From assembly GCA_965203855.1 (NCBI GenBank), contig CBDBDN010000008.1, positions 287,459 through 351,458 on the forward strand: a stretch of 64,000 bases of DNA. The letters run 5' to 3'. The DNA comes from Dehalococcoidia bacterium. GTDB lineage: Bacteria > Chloroflexota > Dehalococcoidia > Lucifugimonadales > UBA3495. Numbering within the stretch: position 1 is the first letter of the stretch; each line of letters starts with the position of its first letter. The notes beneath the pieces are model-generated. The model did no database searches and had not been told where the DNA came from. It saw only the letters and a program-made list of their open reading frames with translations. Below are positions 8,630 through 28,536 of the stretch, in pieces. A program made the translations under genes and the position numbers.

Positions 8630-8638
8630 TGCTATAAT
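8630..8638 (+). promoter_or_regulatory. Extended -10 element TGCTATAAT
   Basis: TGcTATAAT at 8630-8638, about 95 nt upstream of the ATG at 8734. Confidence 0.4.
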
Positions 8639-8733
8639 ACGCGCCGCCGTTAGTGCTTTCTCCGGCCGGCCGTCCCGTACCACCGGGCCGGCGCAGTCGG
8701 ATCCCCTACACCACAGAGGAGCCCCTTCTGAAA

Positions 8734-10602
8734 ATGCCTGAACCCACTACCCGCATCGTTGAATGCGACGTCCTGATTGTTGGCGGCGGTATGTCCGGCT
8801 GCGGCGCCGCCATTGAAGCCCGCTACTGGGGCGGCGACGACCTCCGCATCATTATGGTGGACAAGGCCGCTACCGACCGCAGCGGCGCCGTCGGCGAGGG
8901 CCTCTCCGCCATCAATATGTACATGGGGATGCGCTGGGGCTGGAACCAGCCCGCCGATTACGTGGAATATGTCCGCAACGATATGATGGGCATTTCCCGC
9001 GAGGACCTGGTGTACGATGTCGCCCGCCATGTGGACAGCAGCGTCCATATGTTTGAGGAATGGGGCCTCCCGTTCTGGTACGACGACAACGAACAGTATG
9101 TCCGCGAAGGCCGCTGGCAGGTGATGATCCACGGCGAAGCCTACAAGCCCATCGTGTCCGAAGCCACCAAAAAAGCCTTGGGCGGGCCGGAAAATCACTA
9201 CGAGCGGGTTTTCATCTCCCATCTGTTCACCGACGCCGACGACCCCGGCCGCATCGCCGGCGCCGTCGGGTTCGGCGTGCGCGAGGATGTCATCTATGTG
9301 TTCAAGGCCAACGCCGTAGTCTGCGCCGCCGGCGGCGCCACCGCGCTGTTCCGCCCCCGCAGCGTCGGCGAGGGCATGGGCCGCACCTGGTACTCCATCT
9401 TTGACACCGGCTCCGTGTACGGCCTCATTATCCCCATCGGCGGCGAAATGACCCAGATGGAACACCGCTTCGTCCCCAGCCGTTTCAAGGATTCCTATGG
9501 CCCCGTCGGCGCCTGGTCCCAACTGTTCCGCGCCGACCTGACCAACGCCGCCGGCGACAACTATTTCGTCAACCGCCTGCCGGAACTGAAAAAGTACGAC
9601 CCCTACGGCTCCGCTTTCCCCACACCCACGCCGCTGCGAAACCATCTGCTCTGGACGGAAATCCAGGCCGGCAACGGCCCCATAATGCTGAAAACCCCGG
9701 AGGCCATCAACGCCCTGGCCGCCGGCGATGCCGGCCGCAAGCGGGAAATCATCGCCGAAGCCTGGGAGGATTTCCTGGATATGACCATCTCCCAGGCCAT
9801 CCTCTGGGCGGCCCACAACATCGCCCCTGAGGAACGCCCCAGCGAAGTGGTGCTCGCCGAACCCTACATTATGGGCAGCCACAGCGGGGAATCCGGCGCA
9901 TGGGTCAGCGGCCCCTCCGATGTCGCCCCCGACGGCTACCATTGGGGCTACGGCAAGATGACCACCGTTAGCGGCCTGTTCGCCGCCGGCGACGGCGTCG
10001 GCGCCTGTCCGCACAAATTCTCCTCCGGCTCCTTCACCGAAGGCCGACTGGCCGGCAAATCCGCCGTCGCCTACGCCTTTGACCATCCCGCTATGCCCAA
10101 AGTGGACGACCGCCAAATCGACGGCCTGAAACGCCAGGTGTGGGCGCCTCTGGTTACTTTTGAGGAAAACCAGTACGCCTCCACCAACCCCGAAGTGAAC
10201 CCCAACTACCTGCTGCCCCGCCAGGGCCTGTTCCGGCTGCAAAAGCTGATGGACGAATATGTGGCCGGAGTTTCCGCCGGGTTCACCACCAACGAATCCA
10301 CCATGCTGCGCGGCCTGGAGCTGCTCGGAATGTTCCGCGAGGACTTGCAAAAGCTGGGCGCGCGCAACCGCCACGAACTGCTGCGCTGCCACGAGCTGAT
10401 CCACCGCGCCTGGGTCGGCGAAGCCCATCTGCGGCATATGCTGCACCGCAAGGAAACGCGCTGGCCCGGCTTCTACTACCGCAGCGACTACCCCGAAATG
10501 GACGAAGCCAACTGGCGCGTGTTCGTCAACAGCCGCTACGACGCCGAACACGACAAATGGGATGTATTCACCCGCCCCTGCCCCACGCTGCAAAACGTCT
10601 AA
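8734..10602 (+). CDS. Adenylylsulfate reductase alpha subunit (AprA)-like FAD flavoprotein, orphan
   Basis: CDVLIVGGGMSGCGAAIEA, VDKAATDRSGAVGEGLSAINMY and a C-terminal RKETRWPGFYYRSDYPEMDEANWRVFVNSRYD resemble AprA. I prefer the ATG at 8734 (AGAGGA 14 nt upstream) over the track start at 8653. No aprB is adjacent. Confidence 0.65.
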   Translation: MPEPTTRIVECDVLIVGGGMSGCGAAIEARYWGGDDLRIIMVDKAATDRSGAVGEGLSAINMYMGMRWGWNQPADYVEYVRNDMMGISREDLVYDVARHVDSSVHMFEEWGLPFWYDDNEQYVREGRWQVMIHGEAYKPIVSEATKKALGGPENHYERVFISHLFTDADDPGRIAGAVGFGVREDVIYVFKANAVVCAAGGATALFRPRSVGEGMGRTWYSIFDTGSVYGLIIPIGGEMTQMEHRFVPSRFKDSYGPVGAWSQLFRADLTNAAGDNYFVNRLPELKKYDPYGSAFPTPTPLRNHLLWTEIQAGNGPIMLKTPEAINALAAGDAGRKREIIAEAWEDFLDMTISQAILWAAHNIAPEERPSEVVLAEPYIMGSHSGESGAWVSGPSDVAPDGYHWGYGKMTTVSGLFAAGDGVGACPHKFSSGSFTEGRLAGKSAVAYAFDHPAMPKVDDRQIDGLKRQVWAPLVTFEENQYASTNPEVNPNYLLPRQGLFRLQKLMDEYVAGVSAGFTTNESTMLRGLELLGMFREDLQKLGARNRHELLRCHELIHRAWVGEAHLRHMLHRKETRWPGFYYRSDYPEMDEANWRVFVNSRYDAEHDKWDVFTRPCPTLQNV

Positions 10603-11085
10603 CCATAGCGGCCCATCCGCCGCCGTTTCAACCCGCCATTCCAACACCCCAACCCGCCATTCCAACACCCCAACCCGCCATTCCAACACCCCAACCGTCA
10701 TTCCGGCCCTCTACCGTCATTCCGGCGAAAGCCGGAATCCGGCGGCGTAACCAGCCACCACGGCAATAGAGACGCCGACCGTCATTACAAATACCCCAAC
10801 CGTCATTACAAATACCCCAACCGTCATTACAAATACCCCAACCGTCATTCCGGCCCTCTACCGTCATTCCGGCGCAAGCCGGAATCCGGCGGCGTAATCG
10901 GCCACCACGGCAATAGAGACGCCGACCGTCATTCCAACACCCCAGCCGTCATTCCCACCCAATTCACCGTCATTCCGGCGCAAGCCGGAATCTATGGTCG
11001 TTGCCCCCACTACCGTGGTGGCTGATTATGCCGCTGGATTCCGGCTTTCGCCGGAATGACGGTTGAAGTAAAGGAATGACGGTTA
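10603..11085. repeat. Largest intergenic mosaic repeat array (about 480 nt)
   Basis: Three copies of a 21-nt unit GCCATTCCAACACCCCAACCC (10635-10697). Three copies of a 21-nt unit GTCATTACAAATACCCCAACC (10781-10843). An ~89-nt segment at 10695-10783 is repeated at 10842-10930. Hairpins lie at 10714-10740 and 10861-10887. A 96-nt MITE-like unit sits at 10967-11062. Confidence 0.95.
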
Positions 11086-12431: not shown

Positions 12432-12523
12432 GGAGGGATCGCATAGTGGTCTAGTGCGGGCGCCTGCTAAGCGCTTATCCTGAGAAATCGGGATCGTGGG
12501 TTCGAATCCCACTCCCTCCGCCA
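12432..12523 (+). tRNA. tRNA-Ser (anticodon GCU), CCA encoded
   Basis: Hand-folded cloverleaf: acceptor GGAGGGA/TCCCTCC; D arm GCAT-AGTGGTCTA-GTGC; anticodon arm GGCGC-CTGCTAA-GCGCT; long variable arm ATCC..GGAT; T arm GTGGG-TTCGAAT-CCCAC; discriminator G; CCA. Confidence 0.9.
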
Positions 12524-15300: not shown

Positions 15301-17058
15301 ATGACAACCGCAATCGGTTCCGCTACGGAACACCCTCTCAACCGCAACCTGTTCATCGCGGACAACCTCAGCCTGCTGCGCCGGCTGGATAACAACAGCA
15401 TTGACCTGATTTGCATTGACCCGCCTTTCGCCAAGAACCAGACTTTCATCGGCAATCTGCGGCCTCCCCTGTCGGCAGAGGAGCAGGCCGGCGAGCAGGC
15501 CATGCTATCCGCCTGGGGCATCAGCAGCGATCGAGATGCCGAAGCCGCCGGCATTTTCTGGCCCAACGGCGGCGATTCGGCCCGCTTCCAGGACATCTGG
15601 CGTTGGGAAAGCGATATTCACGAGGAATGGATTACCGCTATCGACGCCGACCGCACCGGCCTAGCCAAAGTCATCGACGCCACGCGCAACGCCCACAGCG
15701 AACAGCAGGCCGCCTACCTATCCTATATGGCAATCCGTCTGATTGAGATGCGCCGGATTTTGAAACCCACCGGCAGCCTGTATTTCCATTGCGACTTTGA
15801 CGCTAACTCTTATATTCGACTAGCCCTGGACGCCATTTTCGGCCGACAGAATGTCCGCAATGAGATTATCTGGGAACGGCATACTTCAACGCAGCGCGGG
15901 TCGCAGCACCGTCCCCGACGCTGGGGCCGCACTACGGATACCATCCTGTTCTGTTCCAAATCGCAGAATGCCAATTTCAACCCCTTCGTTCCGCCGTCCG
16001 ATACGGATGCAGCGCAGCGGTTCCCCCTAGTCGATGAAAACGGGGAACGCTACTATGATGACAGCGCGCATATCTGGCGCACGCCCGGCATGGGCAGCCG
16101 CCCCAACTTGTGCTACGAATGGCGCGGATTTACGAACCCCACTCCGGCGGGATGGCGTTTGAGCCGGGAACGCCTTGAGGAGGAATACCAGAAAGGCAAC
16201 TTTGTCATCCTGCCCGACGGCCGCCTGCAACGCCGTATGTACCAACGCGACTGGCGCGGCGCAGTGCGCGGCAATCTCTGGAATGATGTGAGCCCGGCGC
16301 TCGGCGGCGAAAGAACCGGCTACCCCACCCAAAAGCCCGTCGCTCTTGCCGAGCGTATCATCCTCGCCAGCACCAGGCCCGGCGATGTCGTGCTGGACTG
16401 CTTCGCCGGCTGCGCTTATGTCCCGGTGGCCGCTGAACGCAATGGCCGCCAGTGGATTGCCTGCGATATATCGCCCCGCGCCCTTACCGTGCTGAAGCGC
16501 CAGTTCGCCAAATTCCGCTACGCGGTGGACGGCGTACAGCAGAGCCAGGCGCCCGCCCTGATTACCGACGCCAATGTCATTACCCGCTCCCCCTTTGACC
16601 TGCCGGAACGCACCGATACCGACCCGGTAGAACGGCGGGACATTGCGGAACTGCCCGAAAGAACCTACAAGGTTCCCGCCAGCATCATCCCGGAAAGGGA
16701 AATGCTGGAATTCCTGCTGGAGCTGTCGGATTACACCGCTTGGTGCTGCGGCTTCGCCAATCGCCGGCCCGACGGCAGCATCATCAGAACTACCCGCAAC
16801 TTTCACCTGGACCACCTTGACCCGAAGTCGTTGCAGGGCAGCAACCAGATTTACAACCGCGCCCCAATGTGTCCGCACCACAACATCCGCAAAAACAACC
16901 GCCGGGTGCATCTGGAGGAATATCGCAAGGAAATCGCCGACGCCGGCGAAATGATGGTTGACACCATAGACGAACTGGTGCATTGGCCGTCAGCATCGGA
17001 TCAGGCGCATCTACGCTGGGCGCAGGCCGTTGCCGCCCCGGCCGCCGGCGGACAATGA
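15301..17058 (+). CDS. Beta-class N6A/N4C DNA methyltransferase fused to a C-terminal HNH nuclease (copy 1)
   Basis: Motif IV comes first (IDLICIDPPFAKN), then SLYFHCD, then motif I (PTQKPVALAERIILASTRPGDVVLDCFAGCAYVPVAA). The C-terminal HNH is HLDHLDPKSLQGSNQIYNRAPMCPHHNIRKNNR. Confidence 0.8.
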   Translation: MTTAIGSATEHPLNRNLFIADNLSLLRRLDNNSIDLICIDPPFAKNQTFIGNLRPPLSAEEQAGEQAMLSAWGISSDRDAEAAGIFWPNGGDSARFQDIWRWESDIHEEWITAIDADRTGLAKVIDATRNAHSEQQAAYLSYMAIRLIEMRRILKPTGSLYFHCDFDANSYIRLALDAIFGRQNVRNEIIWERHTSTQRGSQHRPRRWGRTTDTILFCSKSQNANFNPFVPPSDTDAAQRFPLVDENGERYYDDSAHIWRTPGMGSRPNLCYEWRGFTNPTPAGWRLSRERLEEEYQKGNFVILPDGRLQRRMYQRDWRGAVRGNLWNDVSPALGGERTGYPTQKPVALAERIILASTRPGDVVLDCFAGCAYVPVAAERNGRQWIACDISPRALTVLKRQFAKFRYAVDGVQQSQAPALITDANVITRSPFDLPERTDTDPVERRDIAELPERTYKVPASIIPEREMLEFLLELSDYTAWCCGFANRRPDGSIIRTTRNFHLDHLDPKSLQGSNQIYNRAPMCPHHNIRKNNRRVHLEEYRKEIADAGEMMVDTIDELVHWPSASDQAHLRWAQAVAAPAAGGQ

Positions 17059-17079
17059 CGCGCTGCCGGCTAACGCTAT

Positions 17080-17100
17080 CGGAATAAACGGGCTATTCCG
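17080..17100. terminator. Hairpin between convergent genes
   Basis: CGGAATA-AACGGGC-TATTCCG, a 7-bp stem. It overlaps the stop codon of the first Uma2 gene and has no T tract. Confidence 0.3.
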
Positions 17101-17785
17101 CTGCCTCTGCGTGCAGGTCAAAAATCCGCCGCCGCACCTCAAACACAAACCCCGGCATTACATCCGCTCCGCTGAGCGTCTCCGGGTCGTCCAGAATCTC
17201 AGCCGGAACGCCGGGCCGGTAGATGTGAACCTGCCGCCGATACGGGTCAATCAGCCAGCCCAGCAGCGCCCCGTTGGCAATGTACTGCTCCATTTTGCGC
17301 TGCAACGGCGGCAGCGTGTCCGTCTCCGACACAATCTCAGCAACGAAAGTCGGGCAGACGGTGATGGCGCCCCCGGCGGATACCGGCGGCATCGCGGCCA
17401 CCTGCGCCGGGGAAAGCCACAGCGCATCGGGCCGGATCCGGGAACCATCGGGAAAACGCATATTGGCATTGGCGCCGGCCGCAAAGCCTCCGTTGGCTTC
17501 AGTGTAGTTAAACAGCGTTCCCGCCATCTGAAACTCGGCAGCCAGTCCGTCTAGATTCACCATAGGGCTAATCACCAATTCCCCTTTGTTAGTCAGTTCC
17601 AGGTTGAAACCCCGCTCCTCGTTGGCCTGATACAGGTCGGCCATCCACTGGTCAATCTCCGCGTCGCTGAGCTTGCCGGCAACGGATTTGAGGATGGGGC
17701 TGATGTTGACGCGCAACGGTTGCAGCAGTTCGCAATCGTCCACAGCCGCGGCGGCGTCTTGGGTAATGTTCACGGTGGCAGTCAT
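17093..17785 (-). CDS. Uma2 family (DUF820) endonuclease, paralog 1
   Basis: ELTNKGELVISPM, RIRPDALWL, PTFVAEIVSETD, KMEQYIANGALLGWLIDPYRRQVHIYRPG. Confidence 0.85.
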   Translation of the reverse strand: MTATVNITQDAAAAVDDCELLQPLRVNISPILKSVAGKLSDAEIDQWMADLYQANEERGFNLELTNKGELVISPMVNLDGLAAEFQMAGTLFNYTEANGGFAAGANANMRFPDGSRIRPDALWLSPAQVAAMPPVSAGGAITVCPTFVAEIVSETDTLPPLQRKMEQYIANGALLGWLIDPYRRQVHIYRPGVPAEILDDPETLSGADVMPGFVFEVRRRIFDLHAEAAE

Positions 17786-17808
17786 AGCATCCGTCCTTTT
17801 CGGTTCAT

Positions 17809-18492
17809 CTATTGCAAGTCAAAAATACGCTGGCGCACTGCGAATACGAAACCGGGCAGCACATCATCACCGCTGACGGTTTCCGGGTCGTCCAGAATCG
17901 TAGCCGGAACGCCGGGTCGGTAGATGTGAACCTGCCGCCGATACGGGTCAATCAGCCAGCCCAGCAGCGCCCCGTTGGCAATGTACTGCTCCATTTTGCG
18001 CTGCAACGGCGGCAGCGTGTCCGTCTCCGACACGATCTCGGCAACGAAAGCCGGGCAGACGGTGATGGCGCCCCCGGCGGATACCGGCGGCATCGCGGCC
18101 ACCTGCGCCGGGGAAAGCCACAGCGCATCGGGCCGGATCCGGGAACCATCGGGAAAACGCATATTGGCATTGGGGCCGTGCACTTCGCCGCCGATGTCAT
18201 CGGTTTCGTTCCAATTAAACAGGCCAACAAAGAGTCGGCCCTCGGCCATTCCGCCACCGCGATTTACCATAGGGCTAATCACCAATTCCCCTTTGTTGGT
18301 CAGTTCCAGGTTGAAACCCCGCTCCTCGTTAGCCTGATACAGGTCGGCCATCCACTGGTCAATCTCCGCATCGCTGAGCTTGCCGGCAACGGATTTGAGG
18401 ATGGGGCTGATGTTGACGCGCAACGGTTGCAGCAGTTCGCAATCGTCCGCAACCGCGGCGGCGTCTTGGGTGATGTTCACGGTGGCAGTCAT
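17809..18492 (-). CDS. Uma2 family (DUF820) endonuclease, paralog 2
   Basis: Near-identical to paralog 1 apart from a ~30-aa internal cassette and the C-terminal tail. A 23-nt spacer separates it from paralog 1. Confidence 0.85.
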   Translation of the reverse strand: MTATVNITQDAAAVADDCELLQPLRVNISPILKSVAGKLSDAEIDQWMADLYQANEERGFNLELTNKGELVISPMVNRGGGMAEGRLFVGLFNWNETDDIGGEVHGPNANMRFPDGSRIRPDALWLSPAQVAAMPPVSAGGAITVCPAFVAEIVSETDTLPPLQRKMEQYIANGALLGWLIDPYRRQVHIYRPGVPATILDDPETVSGDDVLPGFVFAVRQRIFDLQ

Positions 18493-18515
18493 AGCATCCG
18501 TCCCTTTCGGTTCAT

Positions 18516-19208
18516 CTATTGCAGGTCAAAAATCCGCCGCCGCACCGCGAATACGAAACCGGGCAGCACATCATCGCCGCTGACGGTTTCCGGGTCGTCC
18601 AAAATCTCAACCGGAGCACCAGGGCGGTAGATGTGAACCTGGCGCAGCAAAGGGTCAATCAGCCAGCCGAGTGCTACGCCGTTGTCCAGCCATTCCTCCA
18701 TTTTGGCCTGCTGGGATTCCAGCGTGTCGGAACGGGAGCGGATTTCGGCCACGAACCGGGGTGCGAAAGGCAGGGCGTGATGCCGCTGTCCGGGTGGAGG
18801 CAGTTCCGCCAGCTGCTCCGGCGCAATCCAGCCGGCGTCAGGAGCGCGGCGGCCCAGCCGGGATATACGCACTAACTCGTTGCCAATCGCTACTTTGCCG
18901 CCCGCGCCGGCGTCAGTCCAGGTTGCCAGGTCGTACTGCAAATTAAACTGGCGTTCCGCCCCGTCTCGGCTCTCTGATGCCATTGCAATCAATCTCCCGT
19001 TGCAGTCAATCTCAAACTGGCAGCCCAGCTGCGCGTTGTCGGCGGTGAAACGGAGGAACCAGTCATCCAGCGCATTATCAGAGAACAGAACCAGTAGAGA
19101 GCGAATGTCCAGCGTGAATTCCGGCGGCTCCGCCTTATCCAACGCAGGTTTGATTGCCGGGTCGAGGGCCGGCTGCCGGACGGGAAAGACTGCCGTTGAG
19201 GTGGTCAT
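18516..19208 (-). CDS. Uma2 family (DUF820) endonuclease, paralog 3
   Basis: RRAPDAGWIAPEQ, PRFVAEIRSRSD, KMEEWLDNGVALGWLIDPLLRQVHIYRPG. Confidence 0.85.
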   Translation of the reverse strand: MTTSTAVFPVRQPALDPAIKPALDKAEPPEFTLDIRSLLVLFSDNALDDWFLRFTADNAQLGCQFEIDCNGRLIAMASESRDGAERQFNLQYDLATWTDAGAGGKVAIGNELVRISRLGRRAPDAGWIAPEQLAELPPPGQRHHALPFAPRFVAEIRSRSDTLESQQAKMEEWLDNGVALGWLIDPLLRQVHIYRPGAPVEILDDPETVSGDDVLPGFVFAVRRRIFDLQ

Positions 19209-19237
19209 CGTGTGTCTCCTTACGCCGGTCCGGTGAA

Positions 19238-19996
19238 TTAGCGCAGGTCAAAAATCCGCCGCCGCACCTCAAACACAAACCCCGGCATTACATCCTCTCC
19301 GCTGACGGCCTCCGGGTCATCCAGCGTTTCAACCGGAACGCCGGGCCGGTAGATGTGAACCTGCCGCAGCAAAGGGTCAATCAGCCAGCCGAGGGCGACG
19401 CCGTTGTCCAGCCATTCCTCCATTTTGGCCTGCTGGGATTCCAGCGTGTCGGAACGGGAGCGGATTTCAGCCACAAAGCGGGGCGCAAAGGGTATGCCGT
19501 GATGCATCCAATCCGGCGGCAGCAATTCGTCATTAATCTGTTCCGGCGCTATCCAGCCGGCGTCCGGGGCGCGCCGCCCGCCGCCCGCAATTCTGACCAA
19601 TGCGTTGCCCGGCAACACCAGCCCGCCGGTTCCGGCATCCGACCAAGTACGCGCATCGTAGTACAAATTCCCCGCGGCGATCCGTCCTGAAAAACTTTCC
19701 GAAGCCATGGCAATCAAATTCCCTTCCCGGTCAATCTCAAACTGGCAGCCCAGATCAACGTTGTCCGCCGTGAACCGCAAGAACCAATCGTCCAAAGCGT
19801 CATTATCGCCCAGCAGATCCAAGACGGAATTGATGTCCAGGACGAAGCCGTTGGGCCGGCCAGTATCAGTAGCCGCGCCGTCGGCCATAGCGTCTGCTGC
19901 CGTCGGCTCCGGCATGACGGCCGGCGGCAAGTCGGCCCCGATGGCGACCGCCGAGGAACGAGAAACGGCAGCGGCGGCTTGCGTAGTCGTAGTCAT
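19238..19996 (-). CDS. Uma2 family (DUF820) endonuclease, paralog 4
   Basis: The C-terminal ~95 aa are near-identical to paralog 3. I prefer the start at MTTTTQ (19996), which matches the MT(A/T)T starts of the paralogs and avoids overlap with hemQ. The track start is 20038. Confidence 0.8.
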   Translation of the reverse strand: MTTTTQAAAAVSRSSAVAIGADLPPAVMPEPTAADAMADGAATDTGRPNGFVLDINSVLDLLGDNDALDDWFLRFTADNVDLGCQFEIDREGNLIAMASESFSGRIAAGNLYYDARTWSDAGTGGLVLPGNALVRIAGGGRRAPDAGWIAPEQINDELLPPDWMHHGIPFAPRFVAEIRSRSDTLESQQAKMEEWLDNGVALGWLIDPLLRQVHIYRPGVPVETLDDPEAVSGEDVMPGFVFEVRRRIFDLR

Positions 19997-20016
19997 CGCA
20001 GTCGTCGGCTCCTCAC

Positions 20017-20715
20017 TTATGCCGCATCGTCCAGGCATTCCCGCAGCGGGCGGTTGATGCAGGAGAAAATCGGCGTGTCTTGCAGGGTATAGGGGCGGGC
20101 TTTGGACTCCCGCAGCGCCATTACCAGGTCCAGGAAACCGCCGGGATCGTCCGTTTCAAATCCCAGTATGAACTCCGGGTCGTCCAGCCCGAAAGAGTAG
20201 GCGGTGGAGATTTTCACTTGCGGATACTGATGCCCGATGACGAAATGCTCGTTCATCATTTCCTGGCGGCGTTCCTGGGGCAGCTGATACCAGTCGTGGG
20301 TTTTCCAGAACGGGTACATAAAGAGGTAGCGGCGGCCGACGATGCGGAGCGACGCCGTGTCCCCCGCGCCGTCCTGCCCCTCGTGCCGGTGGTCATCAAT
20401 GTAAGGCGAGCGGCGGGTCATTCCCAGGTAAGAATGGGGGGTTTCCAGATAGCCGGCCAGCCGGGTGCGGTTCAGCTGCGCCGCCAGTTCGTTGATGGCC
20501 TCCAGCTCCGGGGATACGCCCCACAGCATAAAGTCGGCGTCGCCGCGGGTGCCGGCCAGCGTGTAGGTATTGAGGGCCAGGCGGTCGGCGTATTCGGCGG
20601 CAACGGCGGCGAACTCATCCTTGCCGGCGGCGCGGTCGGCGGCGGGCAAACGGCGCCATTCCGGCTGCACCTTGTAGAATGTATATTTGACGAAATCACG
20701 GCGCGGGTCTGCCAT
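20017..20715 (-). CDS. hemQ: Coproheme decarboxylase / chlorite dismutase family protein
   Basis: MADPRRDFVKYTFYKVQPEWRRL, DFMLWGVSPELEAINEL, YLFMYPFWKTHDWYQL. A minus-strand TGcTATGAT -10 near 20773-20781 supports the ATG at 20715 over 20772. Confidence 0.8.
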   Translation of the reverse strand: MADPRRDFVKYTFYKVQPEWRRLPAADRAAGKDEFAAVAAEYADRLALNTYTLAGTRGDADFMLWGVSPELEAINELAAQLNRTRLAGYLETPHSYLGMTRRSPYIDDHRHEGQDGAGDTASLRIVGRRYLFMYPFWKTHDWYQLPQERRQEMMNEHFVIGHQYPQVKISTAYSFGLDDPEFILGFETDDPGGFLDLVMALRESKARPYTLQDTPIFSCINRPLRECLDDAA

Positions 20716-20923
20716 CAGCAACCTCTCAAATCCGCCGGCTCTGATTGTGCCGGGGCGATGCGGATAGGCCAATCATAGCACAACGGCGCAACAGCGCTGA
20801 ATCTCTGCGACGAATCTCTGTGACCTTTCGGCCCGGCGTCAACCGCCCCGAATAGGTTACAATCTACCTGGGGAAAATCCCGATCCTGTTTATCCTGTGC
20901 ATCGGCGTAAAGAGAGGGTTCTG

Positions 20924-21631
20924 ATGGAAATTCGCATTGGCAGTCTGACGCGGGACGCCCGGGAAGCGCAGGGCGCCGCTCTGGTTATTGATGTGTTTCG
21001 CGCTTTTACTACCGCCGCCATCGCCTTTGACCGGGGGGCGGCGCGCATCACGCTGGTAGCCGAAGTTGACGAGGCGCTGGACCTCCGCCGCCGCAATCCC
21101 GCCATCGCCGACATTCTGATGGGCGAAGTGGACGGCAAACGGCCCGACGGGTTTGACTACGGCAATTCCCCCTACGAGGCGTCAACTGTGGACTTTGCGG
21201 GCAAAAGCGTAGTGCAGTCCACGCGAGCCGGCACGGTAGGCACGGCGGCGGCCGGCGCCGCCGGCTGCGACCCCATCTATGTAACTTCATTCGTAGTGGC
21301 CGGCGCTACCGTCCGCGCCTTGCACGCCGAAAACCCGCCGCCGGAACGCGTAACCATCCTGGCCATGGGCGATCAGGGCGTCAACCGCTCCGACGAGGAC
21401 GAACACTGCGCCCTGTACCTCCGCAACCGGCTGGAAGGCCGCAGCCCCGACCCGGAAGCCGTCCGCAAACTGATCATGGCCGGCGGCGCCACCCAAAAGT
21501 TCTTTGACGAAACCCAACCCCAATACCACCCCCGCGATGTATCCCTAGCCCTGGAAGTTGACCGCTACAACTTCGCAATGCGGGTAACGCGGGAGGACGG
21601 GGGGCTGCTGGTGGCGCAGAGGGTAGTGTGA
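20924..21631 (+). CDS. 2-phosphosulfolactate phosphatase (ComB) family protein
   Basis: ALVIDVFRAFTTAAIAF, GFDYGNSPYE, DEDEHCALYLRNRL. AGAGAGG lies upstream of the ATG at 20924, and TACAAT sits at 20858-20863. Confidence 0.7.
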   Translation: MEIRIGSLTRDAREAQGAALVIDVFRAFTTAAIAFDRGAARITLVAEVDEALDLRRRNPAIADILMGEVDGKRPDGFDYGNSPYEASTVDFAGKSVVQSTRAGTVGTAAAGAAGCDPIYVTSFVVAGATVRALHAENPPPERVTILAMGDQGVNRSDEDEHCALYLRNRLEGRSPDPEAVRKLIMAGGATQKFFDETQPQYHPRDVSLALEVDRYNFAMRVTREDGGLLVAQRVV

Positions 21632-21651: not shown

Positions 21652-21930
21652 TTAGGCATTTCGCGACAGACGGTTCAACATCCCTCCAAGGACGCCGAAG
21701 CATTTCACACAGAACTTCGGATTGTTGTGGTATGCCTTTGCCATTTCACGGGCATCATTCATGTCATTGTGGAATCCCAAGTCCTTGTAATGGCGATCGG
21801 ACGGCAAGTCGTTGCAACTGGTGATCTGCTCGTCGTCGCTGGCCTTCGCAACCCCATAAGTAGGGTTGTAAGGGAGGTCCTCGTAGATATGGATTTTGCC
21901 CGAATCGGTATTCAGCGTATATTTCTGCAT
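21652..21930 (-). CDS. Hypothetical 92-aa protein, AT-richer, coupled to the upstream methylase gene
   Basis: The ORF starts 1 nt after the stop of the 997-aa gene. I recognise no motifs (MQKYTLNTDSGKIHIYEDLPYNPTYG...KFCVKCFG). Confidence 0.5.
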   Translation of the reverse strand: MQKYTLNTDSGKIHIYEDLPYNPTYGVAKASDDEQITSCNDLPSDRHYKDLGFHNDMNDAREMAKAYHNNPKFCVKCFGVLGGMLNRLSRNA

Positions 21931-21931
21931 C

Positions 21932-24925
21932 TTAATACTCCCTGATCCCCAACGCCCGCATAATCACACGGTTGCCCCCATGCACCGACGGCTCCCGGCA
22001 CCATTGCTGACGCAGAGCAGCGATTGCGGCGTTGGCCTGCTGATCTTCTCCTAACCCTACCATTGCTAGCGCAACTGCGTCAATCCGATGACGGTTAGCG
22101 TCCTGGAAAGCGTAGGATGCTGGTTGCAACTCCAATGCCGCCAGTTCGTCAATATGCTGTGCTGCGATGGCCCGCGCTTGCACTCCAGCGTCATTGTCTG
22201 CGGTAAAATCGGGGACGGGAAAGCCGTACAACCCGCGTATCTGCAAGCGTGCGCGGCCGCTTTGAGTGGTCTGAGAATAGCAGGTTCTGACCATCAACCC
22301 CAGCGTTGAATTGAGCCAGATTGCCAACGCCGATTTCGTTCCGTCGTCATCCGACAATAATGCCGTCCAGGTACTGCCGCCCATCATTAACTGTTCCGTG
22401 CGCGCCGCCGCCAATGCTTGCGAAGTCAAGCGTAGATTGCGGGATATGAACAGATTGCTGCGCTGCGCCAGCATTTGCCGCAGTCGTCCCTCATCAGCGA
22501 CCGCCGGATAGCCCTCGTGTGTGGGCAAGGTCAAAATGCTGCGCTGCGTTTCGGCTTGGGCAGACCACAATGACGGGTAAGTTGGCAGTTCCCGCGGCGC
22601 AATCGGGTCAAAAGTAAATGCCCCGATTGCTTCGCGGCCTCGTATATGGCCAATCAGATGATGGGTTGGGCCAATGCCAACTACCTGGTCCAGCGTAGTG
22701 GCCGGCAAACTGAAATCCCAACGCTCCCGGCTGGCGGGGAAATAAAGCCGCCCGTCCATCAGCTCGTCGGCAACTGCTGCCAGATTATGGTTCCGCATCC
22801 CGGCGGCGAACCAGGGGAACCCGGCTTGCGGAGTCCGTAAATGTACCCAGCTGCCAACCCGGTTTCTGAACCTGCTGGATATATGGATGGCATCTCCGTG
22901 CAGATTAGTATGGTCAATGTCATTAATGATATTGGCGTACCAATAAGACTGCGCCTCGGACGCTGGCGGAGTTTCCAAATTGACGCACAGGACACCATCC
23001 CGTCCGGCAGCGTCGCTTTCGGTTCGTTTGGCGGCAATCAGCAGCATTTCGTTCATATAGGTATCCGCCGACATCATTGCGCTTTCGTGGGCGGAAAATG
23101 CGATGATGGTTATATCCCGGTATTCGCTTTCAATAGTGCGCCGAAATCCCTCCCACGATTCGGCGTGCGCCGCCGTCAACGGCAGCACCGTCGCGAAAAT
23201 CCCGCCGTCATGCAGCTTGCGGTCGGCCAACGCCGCGAAATCAGCGCCCAAGCCGGCCTGCCCGTCAGTAATTTCGCTGCCGCCGGCGGCCCGCAAGCCG
23301 TTGCGGATATGCGTCAGCCGTTTCACGCTGCGCCGCCGCTGTTTGTCGTCAATACCGCTGACATCAAACAACGCCCGCTCGCCTCGAGCCCGTGAATAAG
23401 GCGGGTTTTGTATCACCAAGTCCATACTGTGATGCGGCACCGGGAGCATGGTCGGAGTTGACTGATTCGCCGTCGCCGTCTGCACCGTCTGCCCGGTTAC
23501 ATCGGTAATCTGCTCCTCCTCAATCAGTTCCAGCGACCCGGTTTTGCCGCCCAGCACGGCTACCGATGCGATGCGCGCCGTGTGGTACTCGGTGGCAATC
23601 TCGGCCGACGACAGGCCCGCCGCCGTCATATGCGACGCCAGGGCGTTGATGTCCAGCCCGGTGATTGACTGCTCCATCATTGTGCGGTGCAAGTTGGCGG
23701 AGCTGCCGCCGGCGGTTTCGTGGCGCTGCCGGATTTGACGATAGGCGGCGCGCAGCAGCGTTCCCGTGCCGCAGGCCAGGTCGGCAATCCGCAGGTTGGC
23801 GGCGGCCGCGGCATCCGACCAGTCGGGCAGATTGATGCGCGACACGGACAGGCGGGCCAACAGTTCCGCCGTTTCCGGCAGCGTGTAGTGGGCGGCGGTT
23901 TCCTCGCGGTCGTCCAGCAGTTTCGGAAAAAGTTCGCCGGCGAAGTCCACATGGTTGCCCAGCCGCAGCGCGGTAATGTTTTCCGCCATCTCGGACAACT
24001 GCTCCATAGCGCGGACGCCCGGCTCAATGGGCATCCGGTCGTCCAGCGCGGTGCGCGCCGTATTGAATATGGAACCGTAGTTGACGGCCAGGATTTTGTC
24101 CCATTCCCGCCGCAAAGCAGTGAGGGACAAGGCGCCCATATTGGCGGCGCGAATCTGGGCGATGGTCTGCAAGCCGGCATTTTGCAGCGATGGGGAATGC
24201 GCCGCCAGCAGGTTGTGCAGCCGCAGCGAAGTCAGCCAGATGCAGCAGGCCATCCGCAGCCCCTGCACATCGTCCCGCTGCCCCAGCGTGCGGGCAATGG
24301 CGCCGGCCACGCCGGGCGGCATACTGCGGTACAGGTAATCGGCCAGGCTGTGGATTTGCGCGGCGACGGCGTCGGCCATAGTGGACACCAGCAGAGGCGG
24401 CGCCGAGGCGTACTCGCACATTACGGCCAGGTCGTCAACGCTGCCGGTTACATCGCCGACTTCAGGCCACACGCTGGCATCCGCATCAGTTCCCGATGGA
24501 CCGGCGTAGAGGACGGCCAGACGCAGTTCAACGCCGTCGGGCTGCGCCAGCCGCTCCCGGAGCCGGTCGATTGACCAGCCTTTGACTTCCTCCGGCGCGC
24601 CTACGGCGATGGCGGCGCGCACCCGGTCGGTAGTGCCGGCAATCAGACGCCCCAGCTTGCGGCGGGCATCGTCAAAAGCCGGCTCGCCAAACTCAACCTC
24701 AATGATGACGGGATAGATGTCGGGCGGCGCCACCAGGATGTCGGGGCGTTCCAAGGCCGCGTCGGCCAGCATCCGCAGCCGCTCGGCAACGACGGAGTTA
24801 GGGTCGCCGCGCCAAAGCTGCCGCCGCTGACGCAAGGCGTCGGCCAACGCTTCATTAAAAGTCTGCTCATGCATCGCCCCGGCCGGAGCGGCAGACAAGC
24901 CGGGCAAGTCAGGCTGGGTAGTCAT
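21932..24925 (-). CDS. Gamma-class N6-adenine DNA methyltransferase, Type IIG/IIL-like single-chain R-M candidate
   Basis: 997 aa. Motif X HYTLPETAELLA, motif I ADLACGTGTLL, motif IV VIQNPPYSRARG. The N-terminus has a PD-(D/E)xK-like ERPDILVAPPDIYPVIIEVEFGE. The ~350-aa C-terminal region could be a TRD. The 3' part is visibly AT-richer. Confidence 0.7.
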   Translation of the reverse strand: MTTQPDLPGLSAAPAGAMHEQTFNEALADALRQRRQLWRGDPNSVVAERLRMLADAALERPDILVAPPDIYPVIIEVEFGEPAFDDARRKLGRLIAGTTDRVRAAIAVGAPEEVKGWSIDRLRERLAQPDGVELRLAVLYAGPSGTDADASVWPEVGDVTGSVDDLAVMCEYASAPPLLVSTMADAVAAQIHSLADYLYRSMPPGVAGAIARTLGQRDDVQGLRMACCIWLTSLRLHNLLAAHSPSLQNAGLQTIAQIRAANMGALSLTALRREWDKILAVNYGSIFNTARTALDDRMPIEPGVRAMEQLSEMAENITALRLGNHVDFAGELFPKLLDDREETAAHYTLPETAELLARLSVSRINLPDWSDAAAAANLRIADLACGTGTLLRAAYRQIRQRHETAGGSSANLHRTMMEQSITGLDINALASHMTAAGLSSAEIATEYHTARIASVAVLGGKTGSLELIEEEQITDVTGQTVQTATANQSTPTMLPVPHHSMDLVIQNPPYSRARGERALFDVSGIDDKQRRRSVKRLTHIRNGLRAAGGSEITDGQAGLGADFAALADRKLHDGGIFATVLPLTAAHAESWEGFRRTIESEYRDITIIAFSAHESAMMSADTYMNEMLLIAAKRTESDAAGRDGVLCVNLETPPASEAQSYWYANIINDIDHTNLHGDAIHISSRFRNRVGSWVHLRTPQAGFPWFAAGMRNHNLAAVADELMDGRLYFPASRERWDFSLPATTLDQVVGIGPTHHLIGHIRGREAIGAFTFDPIAPRELPTYPSLWSAQAETQRSILTLPTHEGYPAVADEGRLRQMLAQRSNLFISRNLRLTSQALAAARTEQLMMGGSTWTALLSDDDGTKSALAIWLNSTLGLMVRTCYSQTTQSGRARLQIRGLYGFPVPDFTADNDAGVQARAIAAQHIDELAALELQPASYAFQDANRHRIDAVALAMVGLGEDQQANAAIAALRQQWCREPSVHGGNRVIMRALGIREY

Positions 24926-25053
24926 AGCCGCCTTTATACCACACCGGCGGTTGGGGGGCGTAGGGCGCGGCGGTCACTATCTTGCTGGCAATTTGCCGCC
25001 TGGCCATCAGCGGAATACTAGTGCCGCGCACCATAAAAATGACAACCGGGGAA

Positions 25054-25082
25054 TTGCAAATCTCCAGTCCCTGCGCTACTAT
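25054..25082 (+). promoter_or_regulatory. Sigma70-like promoter of the GHKL-DUF3883 gene
   Basis: TTGCAA (25054-25059), a 17-nt spacer, then TACTAT (25077-25082). The predicted TSS lies downstream of the ATG at 25081, which supports the ATG at 25117 as the start. Confidence 0.5.
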
Positions 25083-25116
25083 GGCGCCCAATCAGCAGGA
25101 TACTGGCAAGGGCCTT

Positions 25117-28100
25117 ATGAGCGAAATTGCGCTAACCGAATACAGCAGTGCTCGTACACAGCAACTAACTAGGAACGATGCTCGCCGCATCCTAACTCGG
25201 GTTGACGCCGCACGGCAGAATTCGACTTCAGCTAGCCGTCGCTGGCCGTTTGAGCTGATCCAAAACGCCCATGACGCCGGTCCGCGGACCGGCGACGAGC
25301 GCGTTGAAATCGTTTTCCGATTTCAGAACGGCGATTTGGCTGTATCCCACACTGGCAAGCCTTTCACCGCGCAAGAGCTGGCTGCTCTGCTCTCTGGCGG
25401 TTCCAGCAAGGAATTCGATGACCAGGAAACCACGGGGCGTTTTGGCACCGGATTTCTTGCTACGCACGCGTTATCCACCCGGGTCGATGTGGAGGGCATC
25501 ATAGAAACTCACGAAGGCTTTGAGCGGTTTGTAATTGAGCTCGACCGGGACGGCAACGAGGATTCAATCACCGCGAATATCGAACAAGCCAACAAGTCAG
25601 TTAGCGCGGCCACACGGATTACCGGCGCATCGCTTGGCGACCTACCTACTGCGTCGTTCACTTACTACGACGCAGACGATTCAGTAGTAAATGACGGGCT
25701 TGAAAGGTTGCAGGAAGCGTTGCCATACCTTTACGGCACCTGCCCGCAGTTGGGCAAGGTCACTATTGAATCATTAGAAATGACCGCGCGATTTGACCGT
25801 GGACATACATCCGTAATTCATCATGACGGCATTGTCATTGAGATAACGAAAATCAACATTACGGATTCTGATCAACCTACACAGATGGCAGTAATGCGTA
25901 CAATCAAAGACGACAGCAGCGCATCGTTGTTAGCTGTATTCAAAACCACGGACGGTACGACTCCGAAATTCGTAGCTCCGTCCGAAAGGTTTCCCAGATT
26001 GTTCGTACAATTCCCGCTCGGAGAAACCAGCGGATTGCCCCTCAATGTGGTTATTAATGGCCGCTTCACACCCCAGCAAGAGCGTGATGGCATTGCGCTG
26101 AACGCCGAGGATAAGAAGTTGATTGCCGACGCACTGGATACCCTGCCTGCACTAGTATCTCACGCCATTCAGGGCGGGCAGGAAAACGCGCATCAACTTG
26201 CTAGTGTCGGTGTTCCAGCACAACCTCTTGGCGGTGAAAATGCCACTAATGAAATAATATGGTGGAAAGAAATTCTCCTGAAAGTTGCTGAGTCGTTGGC
26301 TAGACAGCCCATTATTCACACAGCGGTCGGGGTGTTGCCCGCAGTATCTCACGGTGGGGATTTTGTATCATTCCTTGTCCCTGCAATCAACAACGCCAGT
26401 CACGAATCAGTTGACTACAACCGAATCCACGAAATTGTGTCTGCTATTACCGAACTCCACGCGCCGACCATAGAAATCGCGCAAGATTGGGCTACAATCG
26501 CTAGGCAATGGCAGGACATCGGTGTTCCGGTAGAACGACTGGGATTTCACGAATTTACCGATTGGATCAAGGGGAGGGCGAAAACAGTTGACGACATCCC
26601 CGTAAGCGCAGACGCGTACCAATGGCTGGCGCAGCTGTTCCTATTGGGGGCGGAGTTGCATGACCGCAATGTAGAGGATATGGTCAATGGGCTTTTGCCC
26701 AACCAGCGCGGAGAATTCCGCAATACGAAAACCGAATATCTTTACGGCGATGCTGGAATATCCGAGGAGGTAAAATCTATAGCGGATATGGTCGAAATCG
26801 ACCTGAAATCGGAGCTTTTGCACGGCCTGATGGCAGACGCACTGAACGCTCCGGGATTTGAATCCGCAAAGGATCTCGTCTGGGGTTCACTGGACAAACA
26901 AGATGATGATAAAGATTATTCAGAGCACCATGCATTGGAGAAAATATTGGACAGTCTGAACAGTGCCTTGCAAGACGACGCCGTGTTCAACCAAAGTACC
27001 GCATTTCTCCCTTTGCGCGCATCTGCCCGTCTAGCTCAGCACCTTTGGGAATCCGGTTTGGAACAGCATCTCCGGCGATGCCCGTTGCTAACTTCCGAAG
27101 GCAAGGTAGTACACCTTACCGGCAATCAGCAGATTTTAGCTCCGGTTTCGCACTGGCCAGACTCAGCGCAACCGTATGCTTGCCTGTACACAGAGAGGCG
27201 CATACTATCCGACTGCTACTGTGATGACAGCACGGTAAGCGGCGCGCTCGCTCCAATGATTGCCGCCGGGCTGGTCATTGAATCGCCTCTGTACAGAGCA
27301 TCCCGTCATGAGATCGATGACCTCAATTTGCTGAATGCTATGGCAAGCGAAAAATTCACTGAAACCCGCGTGGCAGTACGCAACGAAACTTTCGGGCAGA
27401 TTGCGTTTCTAGCAACAGATTTGGTACAGCGTTGCGGTCAAGACAGCGAACTTGCCAAAACCCTGCTTGATTTTGTGCTTAATGTTGCTGCAACAGAGGA
27501 CGATAGCTGGCGCGAGATTAAGCAAATCTCCGGATATAGTTCAGGGCAGCGCATCCCTCTGTCTTTGTATGGTGCGACCTGGCCGTTTGAGCTCAAGGTG
27601 CGGTCGTGGGTTCCTGTCCAGATCCCGGACGAAGAAGGTTTCCAGCCGATGCCGGCAAATGAATCTAATTTACGGGAGATGCTGGATCATACATGGCTTC
27701 GCAATAATCCTGCTGCCGTGCATTTGCTACACCAAGTTTTTGGGTTTAGGCAACTTACATTACTGACCGACAGCTTGGACGCCGAGGTTGAGAATGATTT
27801 GGTTGAACTGTTGCAAGATCCCGCGTTGCTACACTCTGCGGTATCAAATCCTGAAGCAGTTAAATTCGCTTCGGAACTAGCCTCAACCGCGGTCCAACTG
27901 GATTCTGTACGGTCATTCGTGCAGGATGTCGAAAATGACCAAGATCTCCTCGAGCATCTTGCTGAGCGGCGCAAGCAAAGGGAGAGGGTCCACGAGAACC
28001 AAAACCTCGGTTACCATGTGGAAGATTTGGTGCGGGAAAATTTAGAGAGTGCTGGGTTTGCCGTTAAACGCACTGGCGTCGGATCAGATTTTGAGATTTC

Positions 28101-28536
28101 AGCCGAATTAGGTGACGTCGCTAATTTGGAACTAACTCTGGGCAACCAAAGTTGGCTAGTAGAGGTCAAGTCAACGCGTGATCAGCGAGTCCGAATGACC
28201 GATACTCAAGCCAAAACGGCGGTGCAGGAAGGCGACGCGTTTCTGCTGTGTGTGGTGCCTGTATCTACAATAGCGGGTATGCCGGAGCGGGATGAAGTTA
28301 AGGACGCTATGCGCTTCGTCCAAAATTGCGGGTATCGTTTGGAACAATTGTGCAATAATTTGGGTGAATTTGAAGATCAGCGGGATGCCATCACCGCGGA
28401 AGAATCTGCGGGCGTTCAACTAGAAATTACATCAGGCCAAGCGCGAGTTCGGGTTGCCAGTTCGGTATGGGAAGAAGACGGTTTCCCACTTGACGAGCTT
28501 GCCGATAGGTTAGCGTCAGCCATCGCAGTACCCTAA
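25117..28536 (+). CDS. Sacsin/NO VEIN-type GHKL ATPase fused to a C-terminal DUF3883 (restriction endonuclease-fold) domain
   Basis: Bergerat N-box RRWPFELIQNAHDAG, then HTGKPF and GRFGTGFLATH. The C-terminus reads DFEISAELGD...WLVEVKSTRDQRVRMTDTQAKTAV..AFLLCVVPV. The track ORF begins at 24982, so the start is uncertain. Sampled lines are about 47% GC. Confidence 0.75.
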   Translation: MSEIALTEYSSARTQQLTRNDARRILTRVDAARQNSTSASRRWPFELIQNAHDAGPRTGDERVEIVFRFQNGDLAVSHTGKPFTAQELAALLSGGSSKEFDDQETTGRFGTGFLATHALSTRVDVEGIIETHEGFERFVIELDRDGNEDSITANIEQANKSVSAATRITGASLGDLPTASFTYYDADDSVVNDGLERLQEALPYLYGTCPQLGKVTIESLEMTARFDRGHTSVIHHDGIVIEITKINITDSDQPTQMAVMRTIKDDSSASLLAVFKTTDGTTPKFVAPSERFPRLFVQFPLGETSGLPLNVVINGRFTPQQERDGIALNAEDKKLIADALDTLPALVSHAIQGGQENAHQLASVGVPAQPLGGENATNEIIWWKEILLKVAESLARQPIIHTAVGVLPAVSHGGDFVSFLVPAINNASHESVDYNRIHEIVSAITELHAPTIEIAQDWATIARQWQDIGVPVERLGFHEFTDWIKGRAKTVDDIPVSADAYQWLAQLFLLGAELHDRNVEDMVNGLLPNQRGEFRNTKTEYLYGDAGISEEVKSIADMVEIDLKSELLHGLMADALNAPGFESAKDLVWGSLDKQDDDKDYSEHHALEKILDSLNSALQDDAVFNQSTAFLPLRASARLAQHLWESGLEQHLRRCPLLTSEGKVVHLTGNQQILAPVSHWPDSAQPYACLYTERRILSDCYCDDSTVSGALAPMIAAGLVIESPLYRASRHEIDDLNLLNAMASEKFTETRVAVRNETFGQIAFLATDLVQRCGQDSELAKTLLDFVLNVAATEDDSWREIKQISGYSSGQRIPLSLYGATWPFELKVRSWVPVQIPDEEGFQPMPANESNLREMLDHTWLRNNPAAVHLLHQVFGFRQLTLLTDSLDAEVENDLVELLQDPALLHSAVSNPEAVKFASELASTAVQLDSVRSFVQDVENDQDLLEHLAERRKQRERVHENQNLGYHVEDLVRENLESAGFAVKRTGVGSDFEISAELGDVANLELTLGNQSWLVEVKSTRDQRVRMTDTQAKTAVQEGDAFLLCVVPVSTIAGMPERDEVKDAMRFVQNCGYRLEQLCNNLGEFEDQRDAITAEESAGVQLEITSGQARVRVASSVWEEDGFPLDELADRLASAIAVP

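Follow-up and report, generated by a model that had tools for sequence, protein, structure and literature searches.

Evidence for concerted evolution around a variable helix surface in a tandem array of Uma2 genes from a Dehalococcoidia bacterium

Tandem copies of Uma2 genes lie directly behind a hemQ/chdC-like gene in the metagenome-assembled genome of a member of the Dehalococcoidia (Chloroflexota). The stretch of DNA analyzed, referred to here as the window, is 64 kb long and carries the array on its minus strand. Five packed minus-strand genes occupy 17093-20715 in the order hemQ/chdC-like, U4, U3, U2, and U1. Comparison of these genes with one another and with their relatives indicates that neighboring copies are homogenized within a genome over most of their length, whereas one short surface segment has been retained as a distinct type in each copy. 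An earlier reading of this DNA, made from the sequence only, had described four co-oriented Uma2 open reading frames (ORFs) with gaps of 23, 23, and 29 nucleotides (nt), beginning 20 nt behind the hemQ stop codon. ORF coordinates and Pfam matches agree with that description, placing the stop at 20017 and the U4 ATG at 19996. The spacers upstream of U1 and U2 had been called near-identical, and indeed they differ at 1 base of 23. The genes and spacers, in the direction of reading and with lengths of products in amino acids (aa) and Pfam expectation values (E), are as follows.

20017..20715, minus strand: hemQ/chdC-like gene, chlorite dismutase family (Pfam PF06778, E 2.6e-54)
19997..20016, minus strand: hemQ-U4 spacer, 20 nt, with a GAGGAG ribosome-binding site inside it (read from the sequence)
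19238..19996, minus strand: U4, Uma2 paralog of the U3/U4 subtype, 252 aa, PD-EXR-K variant (PF05685, E 2.7e-25)
19209..19237, minus strand: U4-U3 spacer, 29 nt (ORF coordinates)
18516..19208, minus strand: U3, Uma2 paralog of the U3/U4 subtype, 230 aa, with a 3' end of U2 type (PF05685, E 6.6e-29)
18493..18515, minus strand: U3-U2 spacer, 23 nt, one base apart from the U2-U1 spacer
17809..18492, minus strand: U2, Uma2 paralog of the U1/U2 subtype, 227 aa, patch type B (PF05685, E 9.6e-28)
17786..17808, minus strand: U2-U1 spacer, 23 nt (ORF coordinates)
17093..17785, minus strand: U1, Uma2 paralog of the U1/U2 subtype, 230 aa, patch type A (PF05685, E 6.3e-27)

The hemQ ATG at 20715 agrees with the 232-aa gene call in L011, a related contig from another sample, and the hemQ product is 94% identical in protein sequence to its homolog in L001, a chromosome-level assembly (OZ241860.1, 3.8 Mb). 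U4 is taken to start at the ATG at 19996, which has the GAGGAG ribosome-binding site 5' of it, and the U4 ortholog in L011 is likewise 252 aa long; a longer U4 ORF reaching 20038 overlaps hemQ. U1 is the final gene of the array and ends in the C-terminal tail HAEAAE. A tblastn search found no further Uma2 gene in the 64-kb window. A consensus scan of 16800-21200 detected no promoter-like site, and terminator-like sites in the same interval are no commoner than in shuffled sequence. The tight spacing and the lack of such sites make it plausible, as a prediction, that the genes form one transcription unit read from hemQ, the probable source of array transcription.

All four ORFs match the Pfam Uma2 family (PF05685/COG4636, DUF820) with E values of 1e-25 to 1e-29. 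Profile scores are 89-101 bits against a cut-off of 27, and the matches run from profile positions 3-13 to position 171 of 172. U1 and U2 are 88% identical as proteins. U3 and U4 had been thought to have unrelated N-terminal halves, but they are 75% identical over 208 aa and have simply diverged there; only the first ~25-45 residues cannot be aligned. Among the four copies, the structure model is of U1 only. This AlphaFold2 model, built from 116 aligned sequences, has a mean predicted local distance difference test (pLDDT) score of 87. Its best match in the PDB is TT1808 (1wdj) from Thermus thermophilus HB8, the protein whose structure was solved first in Uma2/COG4636, with a target-normalized template modeling (TM) score of 0.88 and a Foldseek E of 2e-18. 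Target-normalized TM-scores against 1wdj and the three further solved structures of the family, 3ot2 (Ava_3926), 6okh, and 9y1l, range from 0.76 to 0.88. A profile search with the sequence likewise recovers 1wdj, with an E of 3.6e-26 across residues 58-216. TT1808 has the same fold and the same PD...E-x-x/R...K arrangement as the window proteins and lacks, as they also seem to, the His that most family members have before α1, the first core helix. It differs in having neither the conserved ~50-residue N-terminal module of the window proteins (strand 24-27, helices 29-34 and 41-54) nor a Glu at the position of E84, which is invariant in the subfamily.

In the PD-EXX-K site of the family, as set out by Feder and Bujnicki (2005; PMC551604), the Lys is shifted to the following helix. 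The corresponding residues in U1 and U2 are P119-D120, E150-I-V, and K164, and U3 and U4 carry the PD-EXR-K variant with D124, E155-I-R, and K169. Across all alignments made (A1-A4), the residues equivalent to D120, E150, and K164 show no or almost no variation. No His occurs in any of the four copies from the SP/AS motif to the first core helix, all3650 itself not having been aligned directly; the same paper records that the conserved His at this place (H43 of all3650) is substituted in a sizeable subgroup. Outside the patch, the flanks have a ratio of nonsynonymous to synonymous substitution rates (dN/dS) of 0.05-0.11 by the Nei-Gojobori method, a value indicative of strong purifying selection on the scaffold. 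Because the active-site residues are intact and the flanks are so constrained, the four copies look functional. This agrees with the initial assignment of the paralogs as Uma2 proteins, and the loss of active-site residues in most copies that could have spoken against it is not seen. No biochemical activity has been demonstrated for any Uma2 protein in the literature searched. Matches to the PADLOC model PDC-S03 are partial and weak (E 1.5e-5 to 2e-4, over 50-125 residues). The 20-29-nt spacers hold no antitoxin ORF and each array gene is a full-length Uma2 gene; a type II toxin-antitoxin pair was set aside because no small co-oriented antitoxin gene is adjacent. The missing antitoxin ORF agrees with the 'solo toxin' description of the family (PMC2701414).

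The internal structure of the copies is mosaic. U1 and U2 differ at only 2 of their first 77 residues and then carry two wholly different segments of ~30 aa, a pattern that the sequence-only reading had noticed and that protein alignment reproduces. Their DNA is 97-100% identical from the upstream spacer to 17555, where a divergent block with indels begins (17470-17554 in U1 and 18171-18261 in U2). Identity of ~99% resumes across 17469-17200, after which the genes diverge again at the 3' end. The near-identity once assigned to the C-terminal ~120 aa of U1 and U2 therefore extends to about residue 195 and fails beyond it. The longest exact repeat shared by the two genes is 122 nt. At the 3' ends the copies pair differently, 1 with 4 and 2 with 3, as had been proposed, and the switch points are sharp. 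In U2 the breakpoint lies between 17895 and 17881 (maximum chi-square 182 in a triplet test), and in U1 it lies near 17238/17216, each with a permutation p of 2e-4. Regional identities and breakpoint tests alike thus place the divergence in discrete tracts and not evenly along the genes. The tracts are as follows.

18172..18258, minus strand: U2 variable patch, residues 79-107, type B, GGGMAEGRLFVGLFNWNETDDIGGEVHGP; 48% nt identity to the U1 patch
17809..17890, minus strand: U2 3' tract, U3-like and not U1-like; the likeness extends across the downstream spacer and reaches the beginning of U1
17471..17551, minus strand: U1 variable patch, residues 79-105, type A, DGLAAEFQMAGTLFNYTEANGGFAAGA; helix 78-98 and strand 101-104
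17114..17216, minus strand: U1 3' tract, U4-like; 100% identity with the U4 3' end over 17163-17114

Several simple origins for this mosaic can be set aside. A blastn-short search found no second copy or donor of either variable segment in the 64-kb window, and since each segment matches only itself, a silent donor cassette is excluded for the window. A diversity-generating retroelement was rejected because there is no template copy and because the differences fall at all bases and include indels; a reverse transcriptase was not specifically searched for. A single unequal crossover that would have produced both the 2-with-3 and the 1-with-4 ends was rejected because the 3' ends are permuted again in L011.

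L011 carries the same array order and is 94% identical in nucleotide sequence across the array. Its gene order is a 994-aa gene, a small ORF, comB, hemQ, U4, U3, U2, and U1, followed later by nadA and miaB. Nucleotide identities by region, for paralogs within the window and for orthologs between the two genomes, are given below.

U1 vs U2, same genome: N-terminal 96.6%, patch 48.3%, core 98.4%, C-terminal 79.4%
U1 vs L011 U1, orthologs: N-terminal 94.4%, patch 98.8%, core 91.4%, C-terminal 88.2%
U2 vs L011 U2, orthologs: N-terminal 98.3%, patch 98.9%, core 90.2%, C-terminal 78.4%

Site patterns in the four sequences separate the two regions. The patch contains more than 50 paralog-specific sites, and the core contains 21 genome-specific sites that are common to both paralogs. 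Between paralogs, the synonymous substitution rate (dS) is 1.2-1.6 in the patch, where it is saturated, versus 0.05-0.14 in the flanks. Between orthologs, it is 0-0.05 in the patch and 0.29-0.37 in the core. The ortholog patch values agree with the housekeeping background between the two genomes (hemQ 0.063, nadA 0.088, and miaB 0.090). Because ortholog core dS exceeds this background while patch dS matches it, the alignments indicate that the core has been overwritten since the genomes split and that the patch has not. The 3' ends tell of further exchange. Over its last 147 nt, window U2 matches the 3' end of L011 U3 with 100% identity, and the window U4 3' end matches L011 U1/U2 at 97-98% over the last 87 nt and at 80-82% over the first 60 nt. 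By this comparison, the 3' ends have been permuted between two genomes that are 94% identical.

Recurrent duplication and gene conversion, as postulated by the sequence-only reading, are thus supported by site patterns, dS, breakpoints, and changes in copy number. Its proposal of a local replacement of the segment needs to be recast: the segment does differ sharply, but it is better described as retained, with the flanks being overwritten around it. The comparisons demonstrate, at the level of aligned genes, an array that evolves by unequal crossing-over and gene conversion, and they show neighboring copies to be homogenized within a genome in the catalytic core and the N-terminal module. Judged from the same alignments, a segment of 27-29 residues, comprising the non-buried faces of α1 and the following strand, is exempt from homogenization. 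The patch types, so compared, are discrete, old, and conserved across genomes, yet unlike between neighboring copies.

In the U1 model, the patch consists of a long helix (residues 78-98) and a strand (101-104), and the helix is α1 of the PD-(D/E)xK fold. Two regions stand out as entropy peaks among 114 homologs from the U1/U2 subfamily, namely the N-terminal tail (residues 4-19), which is disordered, and, within the patch, positions 81, 82, 85-90, 92, 93, 95-98, 102, and 103. Conserved within the patch region are A83, E84, L91, W94, G99, G100, and G104. The conserved positions share one helical face and the other faces vary; in the model, the conserved face of α1 would pack on the sheet. Mean pairwise identity in the subfamily is 49% in the patch versus 78% in the flanks. 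Patches fall into at least 24 discrete types (clusters), and 54 protein pairs combine flanks that are at least 93% identical with patches that are less than 60% identical. Type A is still the same where flank identity between proteins is as low as 81%, and type B is also found in the homologs P0006, P0008, P0010, and P0012 and in the related arrays L012-L014.

The variable positions are mostly occupied by hydrophobic or small residues (F, L, I, V, G, and A), with few K, R, N, or Q except at 82 and 86. Some of them covary. Positions 85 and 92 read F-G in 22 of 95 patch variants and G-F in 21, and F-F is rare (5); positions 85 and 88 are either G-F or F-A. The 85-92 pairing fits an antiparallel pair of helices centered on residues 88/89. 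The dN/dS of the patch is 0.4-0.6 by the Nei-Gojobori method, with synonymous sites saturated. Two homologs, P0047 and P0054, carry a Pro/Gly-rich low-complexity insertion of 40-55 residues at the C-terminal end of the variable helix, at the same position as the 2-residue insertion of U2. P0011, which resembles a natural fusion, was excluded as a read-through of two adjacent genes, and a generalization of the concentrated patch to the U3/U4 subfamily was dropped.

Relatives (L011-L014 and L001) also have the array, again placed behind hemQ, and the number of hemQ-linked copies ranges from 3 to 5. The orders of genes or patch types behind hemQ are as follows.

L014, three genes: U4', B, B'
Window and L011, four genes: U4, U3, B, A
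L013, five genes: U4', U3, A, C, B
L012, cut contig: ..., U3, A, B

The final gene of the array always has the tail LH(A/T)EAAE, whichever patch it carries. Relative to this fixed terminal tail, A and B swap their order between arrays, so that patch and gene position are uncoupled. In L001, hemQ-U4-U3 is followed by an inverted pair of U1/U2 type (6932-9989), and the array is convergent within itself. The same chromosome has a separate three-gene Uma2 array (L007).

In a second clade, the same Uma2 subfamily sits 3 nt behind malate synthase and before a 5'-3' exonuclease gene. This slot holds five copies in L003 (5822-9342), two in L004 (6944-8346), and one in L002 (6971-7669). Two of the five L003 copies are 100% identical, and a third compared with this identical pair shows 60% identity in the patch and 92-98% in the flanks. 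A survey of hemQ-Uma2 adjacency therefore finds it recurring within one clade, with malate synthase used instead in the other; hemQ is an insertion site common to one clade and not a general association. The L003 array also contains a 782-nt run of exact identity at an offset of 701 nt, which amounts to a perfect tandem repeat of ~1.5 kb. Such a repeat would hardly survive short-read assembly (the sequencing platform is not known), so the mosaic pattern is unlikely to be an assembly artifact. The same array was found in four other independent assemblies.

The Uma2/COG4636 family comprises thousands of proteins and is abundant in both Chloroflexota and Deinococcus-Thermus. Its members account for up to 2% of genes in some cyanobacteria, according to PMC551604, which also describes tandem Uma2 duplications, four consecutive genes in Crocosphaera watsonii, and an interpretation as proliferating selfish elements. 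Makarova et al. (2009; PMC2701414) count 114 COG4636-COG4636 neighbor pairs and regard Uma2 as a probable solo toxin whose paralogs occur together in cassettes. These cyanobacterial and Thermus cassettes are likewise tandem and co-oriented; the host here belongs to the Dehalococcoidia. The available portions of both papers treat arrangement only and contain neither concerted evolution of a scaffold nor an α1 segment exempt from recombination. Single Uma2 genes have been reported inside other operons, namely sll1222 (Uma2/DUF820) inside hoxEFUYH of Synechocystis (PMC4963859) and a Uma2 gene inside the Microcystis cmr operon (PMC11855584). In these cases, as in the array here, a different transcription unit contains the Uma2 genes or is followed by them immediately, with very little space between. 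The hox and cmr cases are single genes, however, whereas here arrays of 1 to 5 copies vary in number. Tandem Uma2 cassettes and operon-embedded Uma2 genes are thus already described, and the array is a Chloroflexota-specific case of a known cassette class. The concerted evolution of the scaffold around a recombination-exempt, allele-like α1 surface appears to be undescribed in the literature searched.

Type I restriction hsdS genes, in which target-recognition domains are swapped, offer an analogy, as they use conserved stretches as recombination substrates and keep variable recognition segments distinct. The likeness to the array would lie in the combination of a conserved recombination substrate with a distinct variable segment in each copy. 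Unlike hsdS, the array copies are all complete genes that are presumably expressed, not silent half-genes, and what varies in them is a helix of 27 residues within the catalytic domain. No inverted repeats were found at the array, unlike in hsdS systems, and no recombinase was noticed, although no search aimed at recombinases was made.

Between the array and nadA lies a gene of another kind.

15301..17058, plus strand: N6/N4 DNA methyltransferase (MTase) with an HNH-like C-terminus (PF01555, E 3.3e-34; PADLOC MTase_II, E 1e-48)

This MTase-HNH gene is convergent with the array, from which it is separated by 34 nt, and it starts 30 nt after the nadA stop codon; its tight position behind nadA mirrors that of the Uma2 array behind hemQ. 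The L011 slot (8766-10653) contains a HEC-01A/B-like ATPase pair instead (E 4e-52 and 5e-7). In L001 the array is next to aminotransferase, CorC, and TsaD genes, with no MTase-HNH gene. Because the slot holds an MTase-HNH gene, a HEC-01-like pair, or housekeeping genes depending on the genome, it is a hotspot of defense-type gene turnover. On the other side of hemQ, the gene directly upstream in L014 encodes an AAA_14/DUF4143 ATPase (900-2408), whereas the window has comB there in the opposite orientation; this, too, points to gene turnover near the locus.

Farther along in the window, a 1184-aa ORF (24982-28536, plus strand) matches Tiamat TmtA over nearly its full length (E 3.6e-130) and is conserved in L011. 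Divergent from this TmtA homolog is the gene for a 997-aa protein (21932-24925, minus strand) that has weak methyltransferase, mad2, and PglX-like matches and is also conserved in L011, from which it has evolved fast (dS 0.35, dN 0.079). A 92-aa ORF (21652-21930, minus strand) lies between the 997-aa gene and comB, and the same place in L011 (3883-4161) is taken by an unrelated ORF of the same length (dN ~1.2, dS saturated) between orthologous flanking genes. Neither of the two 92-aa ORFs has a Pfam or PADLOC match. Rfam and ARAGORN scans of the whole 64-kb window found nothing in or near the array; their sole match is a tRNA-Ser gene (anticodon GCT) at 12432-12523 on the plus strand, just upstream of miaB.

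The account considered probable, if well short of secure, is that of a recombining Uma2 array with a shared scaffold, in which the α1 patch acts as a specificity determinant and is kept diverse. The array would have been inserted behind the housekeeping gene hemQ, in the same orientation and with minimal spacing, and most likely rides on the hemQ transcript. Conversion overwrites the core and the N-terminal module while the patch stays distinct in each copy. As a specificity determinant, the patch would be under selection that keeps differing types side by side, and the array would represent a small repertoire of nuclease isoforms on one scaffold. Such selection is suggested because the types persist even though two flanks this similar would mechanically allow conversion to span the patch. 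The preferred reading of the variable, hydrophobic face of α1 (residues 85, 88, 89, and 92) is that of a protein-protein surface. Most likely it would be a homodimer interface, through which co-expressed paralogs would pair with themselves and not with each other. A packed interface is favored over a DNA-reading surface because of the hydrophobic positions, the size-compensating swaps, and two-hybrid self-interaction in the family: a yeast two-hybrid study of Synechocystis found nine self-interacting DUF820 proteins, together with heterodimers of paralogs (PMC2779905). The Uma2 genes themselves would be selfish or defense-like 'solo' nuclease modules with no role in heme synthesis.

Several considerations weigh against this account. 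The interface was placed only from residue composition, covariation, and two-hybrid data on distant homologs, and the covariation comes from patch types that are phylogenetically related. The dN/dS of the patch does not exceed 1, so positive selection is not demonstrated, although with saturated dS the test has low power. The C-terminal end of the helix must be freely exposed, since P0047 and P0054 tolerate their 40-55-aa insertion there. Variability is more dispersed in the U3/U4 subfamily, and the concentrated patch may be a feature of one subfamily. Nuclease activity is deduced from fold and motif, and the PDC-S03 matches are weak, with E values around 1e-5. Finally, the related arrays are mostly metagenome assemblies, and some of the fine-scale permutation could be mis-phasing; this is conceivable because the copies are near-identical and the longest exact U1/U2 repeat is 122 nt.

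Other explanations differ in what they make of the patch. It is improbable that the copies are ordinary recent tandem duplicates in which the patch is a loosely constrained, fast-drifting surface element of no functional meaning. The segment does lie on the surface, accommodates indels of 2 aa and, at its end, even 40-55 aa of inserted low-complexity sequence, and has a dN/dS below 1, but a drifting element would hardly be 98.8-98.9% identical between genomes where the core is 90-91% identical, or leave type A identical where the flanks have fallen to 81%. Its divergence is also discrete, with at least 24 types, and not graded, and the patch dS between paralogs is ~10-25 times that of the flanks (1.2 versus 0.05-0.14), which indicates a difference in age and not in rate. 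Target recognition and an arms-race surface are close rivals of the dimer interface. The patch might read a nucleic-acid target, making the paralogs restriction-like nucleases that differ in sequence or modification specificity and the array a battery of such specificities. This is possible but doubtful. Helix α1 is a core helix that starts beside the active-site region, the invariant A83-E84 pair lies inside the patch, the region is rich in defense genes, and cargo surveys count COG4636 among restriction endonucleases; on the other hand, the dominance of F, L, I, V, G, and A at the variable positions would be unusual on a surface that reads DNA, the arrays have no cognate methyltransferase as a consistent partner, and no DNA-bound Uma2 structure is among the PDB matches. 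A little less likely still is a surface shaped by an arms race, bound by a phage inhibitor or trigger, with several types broadening the coverage. Allele-like hypervariability within a strongly constrained protein would be expected of such a surface, the neighborhood is a hotspot of defense-gene turnover (MTase-HNH versus a HEC-01-like pair) with Tiamat nearby, and related proteins have weak PADLOC PDC-S03 matches. Nevertheless, there is no direct evidence of phage defense by any Uma2 protein, and the types are stable across genomes that are 6-20% apart, with no sign of quick turnover.

The remaining alternative concerns the whole locus. The sequence-only reading had thought a functional link with the MTase-HNH gene conceivable. 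On such a view, the array and its convergent neighbor would form one restriction-modification-like unit in which the methylase protects the host against the Uma2 nucleases. The two are 34 nt apart, L012 and L014 have this MTase at the corresponding place, and an MTase-HNH gene of 35% identity lies 3.4 kb from a Uma2 gene in L002. Its presence in L012 and L014, however, is synteny among close relatives and not independent evidence, and L011 has the identical four-gene array with the HEC-01-like ATPase pair in place of the MTase. The L001 array, flanked by its aminotransferase, CorC, and TsaD genes, and the L003 and L004 arrays also lack the MTase-HNH gene. Moreover, the MTase has an HNH-like nuclease domain of its own and follows nadA at a distance of 30 nt, features that suggest it was inserted independently. 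A type II restriction-modification unit was accordingly rejected for want of co-inheritance, and the proposed link, which did not hold in these genomes, is very improbable.

The homogenized array with its retained α1 patch makes the locus, together with its relatives, a natural experiment, in which recombination has erased differences everywhere except on one 27-residue helix surface. The locus also shows how Uma2 genes settle behind housekeeping genes and then expand and contract. A broader and more tentative idea, which is at present rather unlikely, is that the exposed faces of α1 are a swappable specificity module across a very large nuclease family and that the arrays are repertoires, in which gene conversion would keep renewing the common catalytic scaffold and balancing selection would maintain several specificity types together. 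If this were true, each patch type would have its own target or partner to recognize, for instance a DNA site, a modification, or a protein from a phage, and the arrays would amount to an innate, allele-based means of discrimination that has yet to be described for PD-(D/E)xK enzymes. The retained helix surface points to the residues that may carry specificity in a large protein family.

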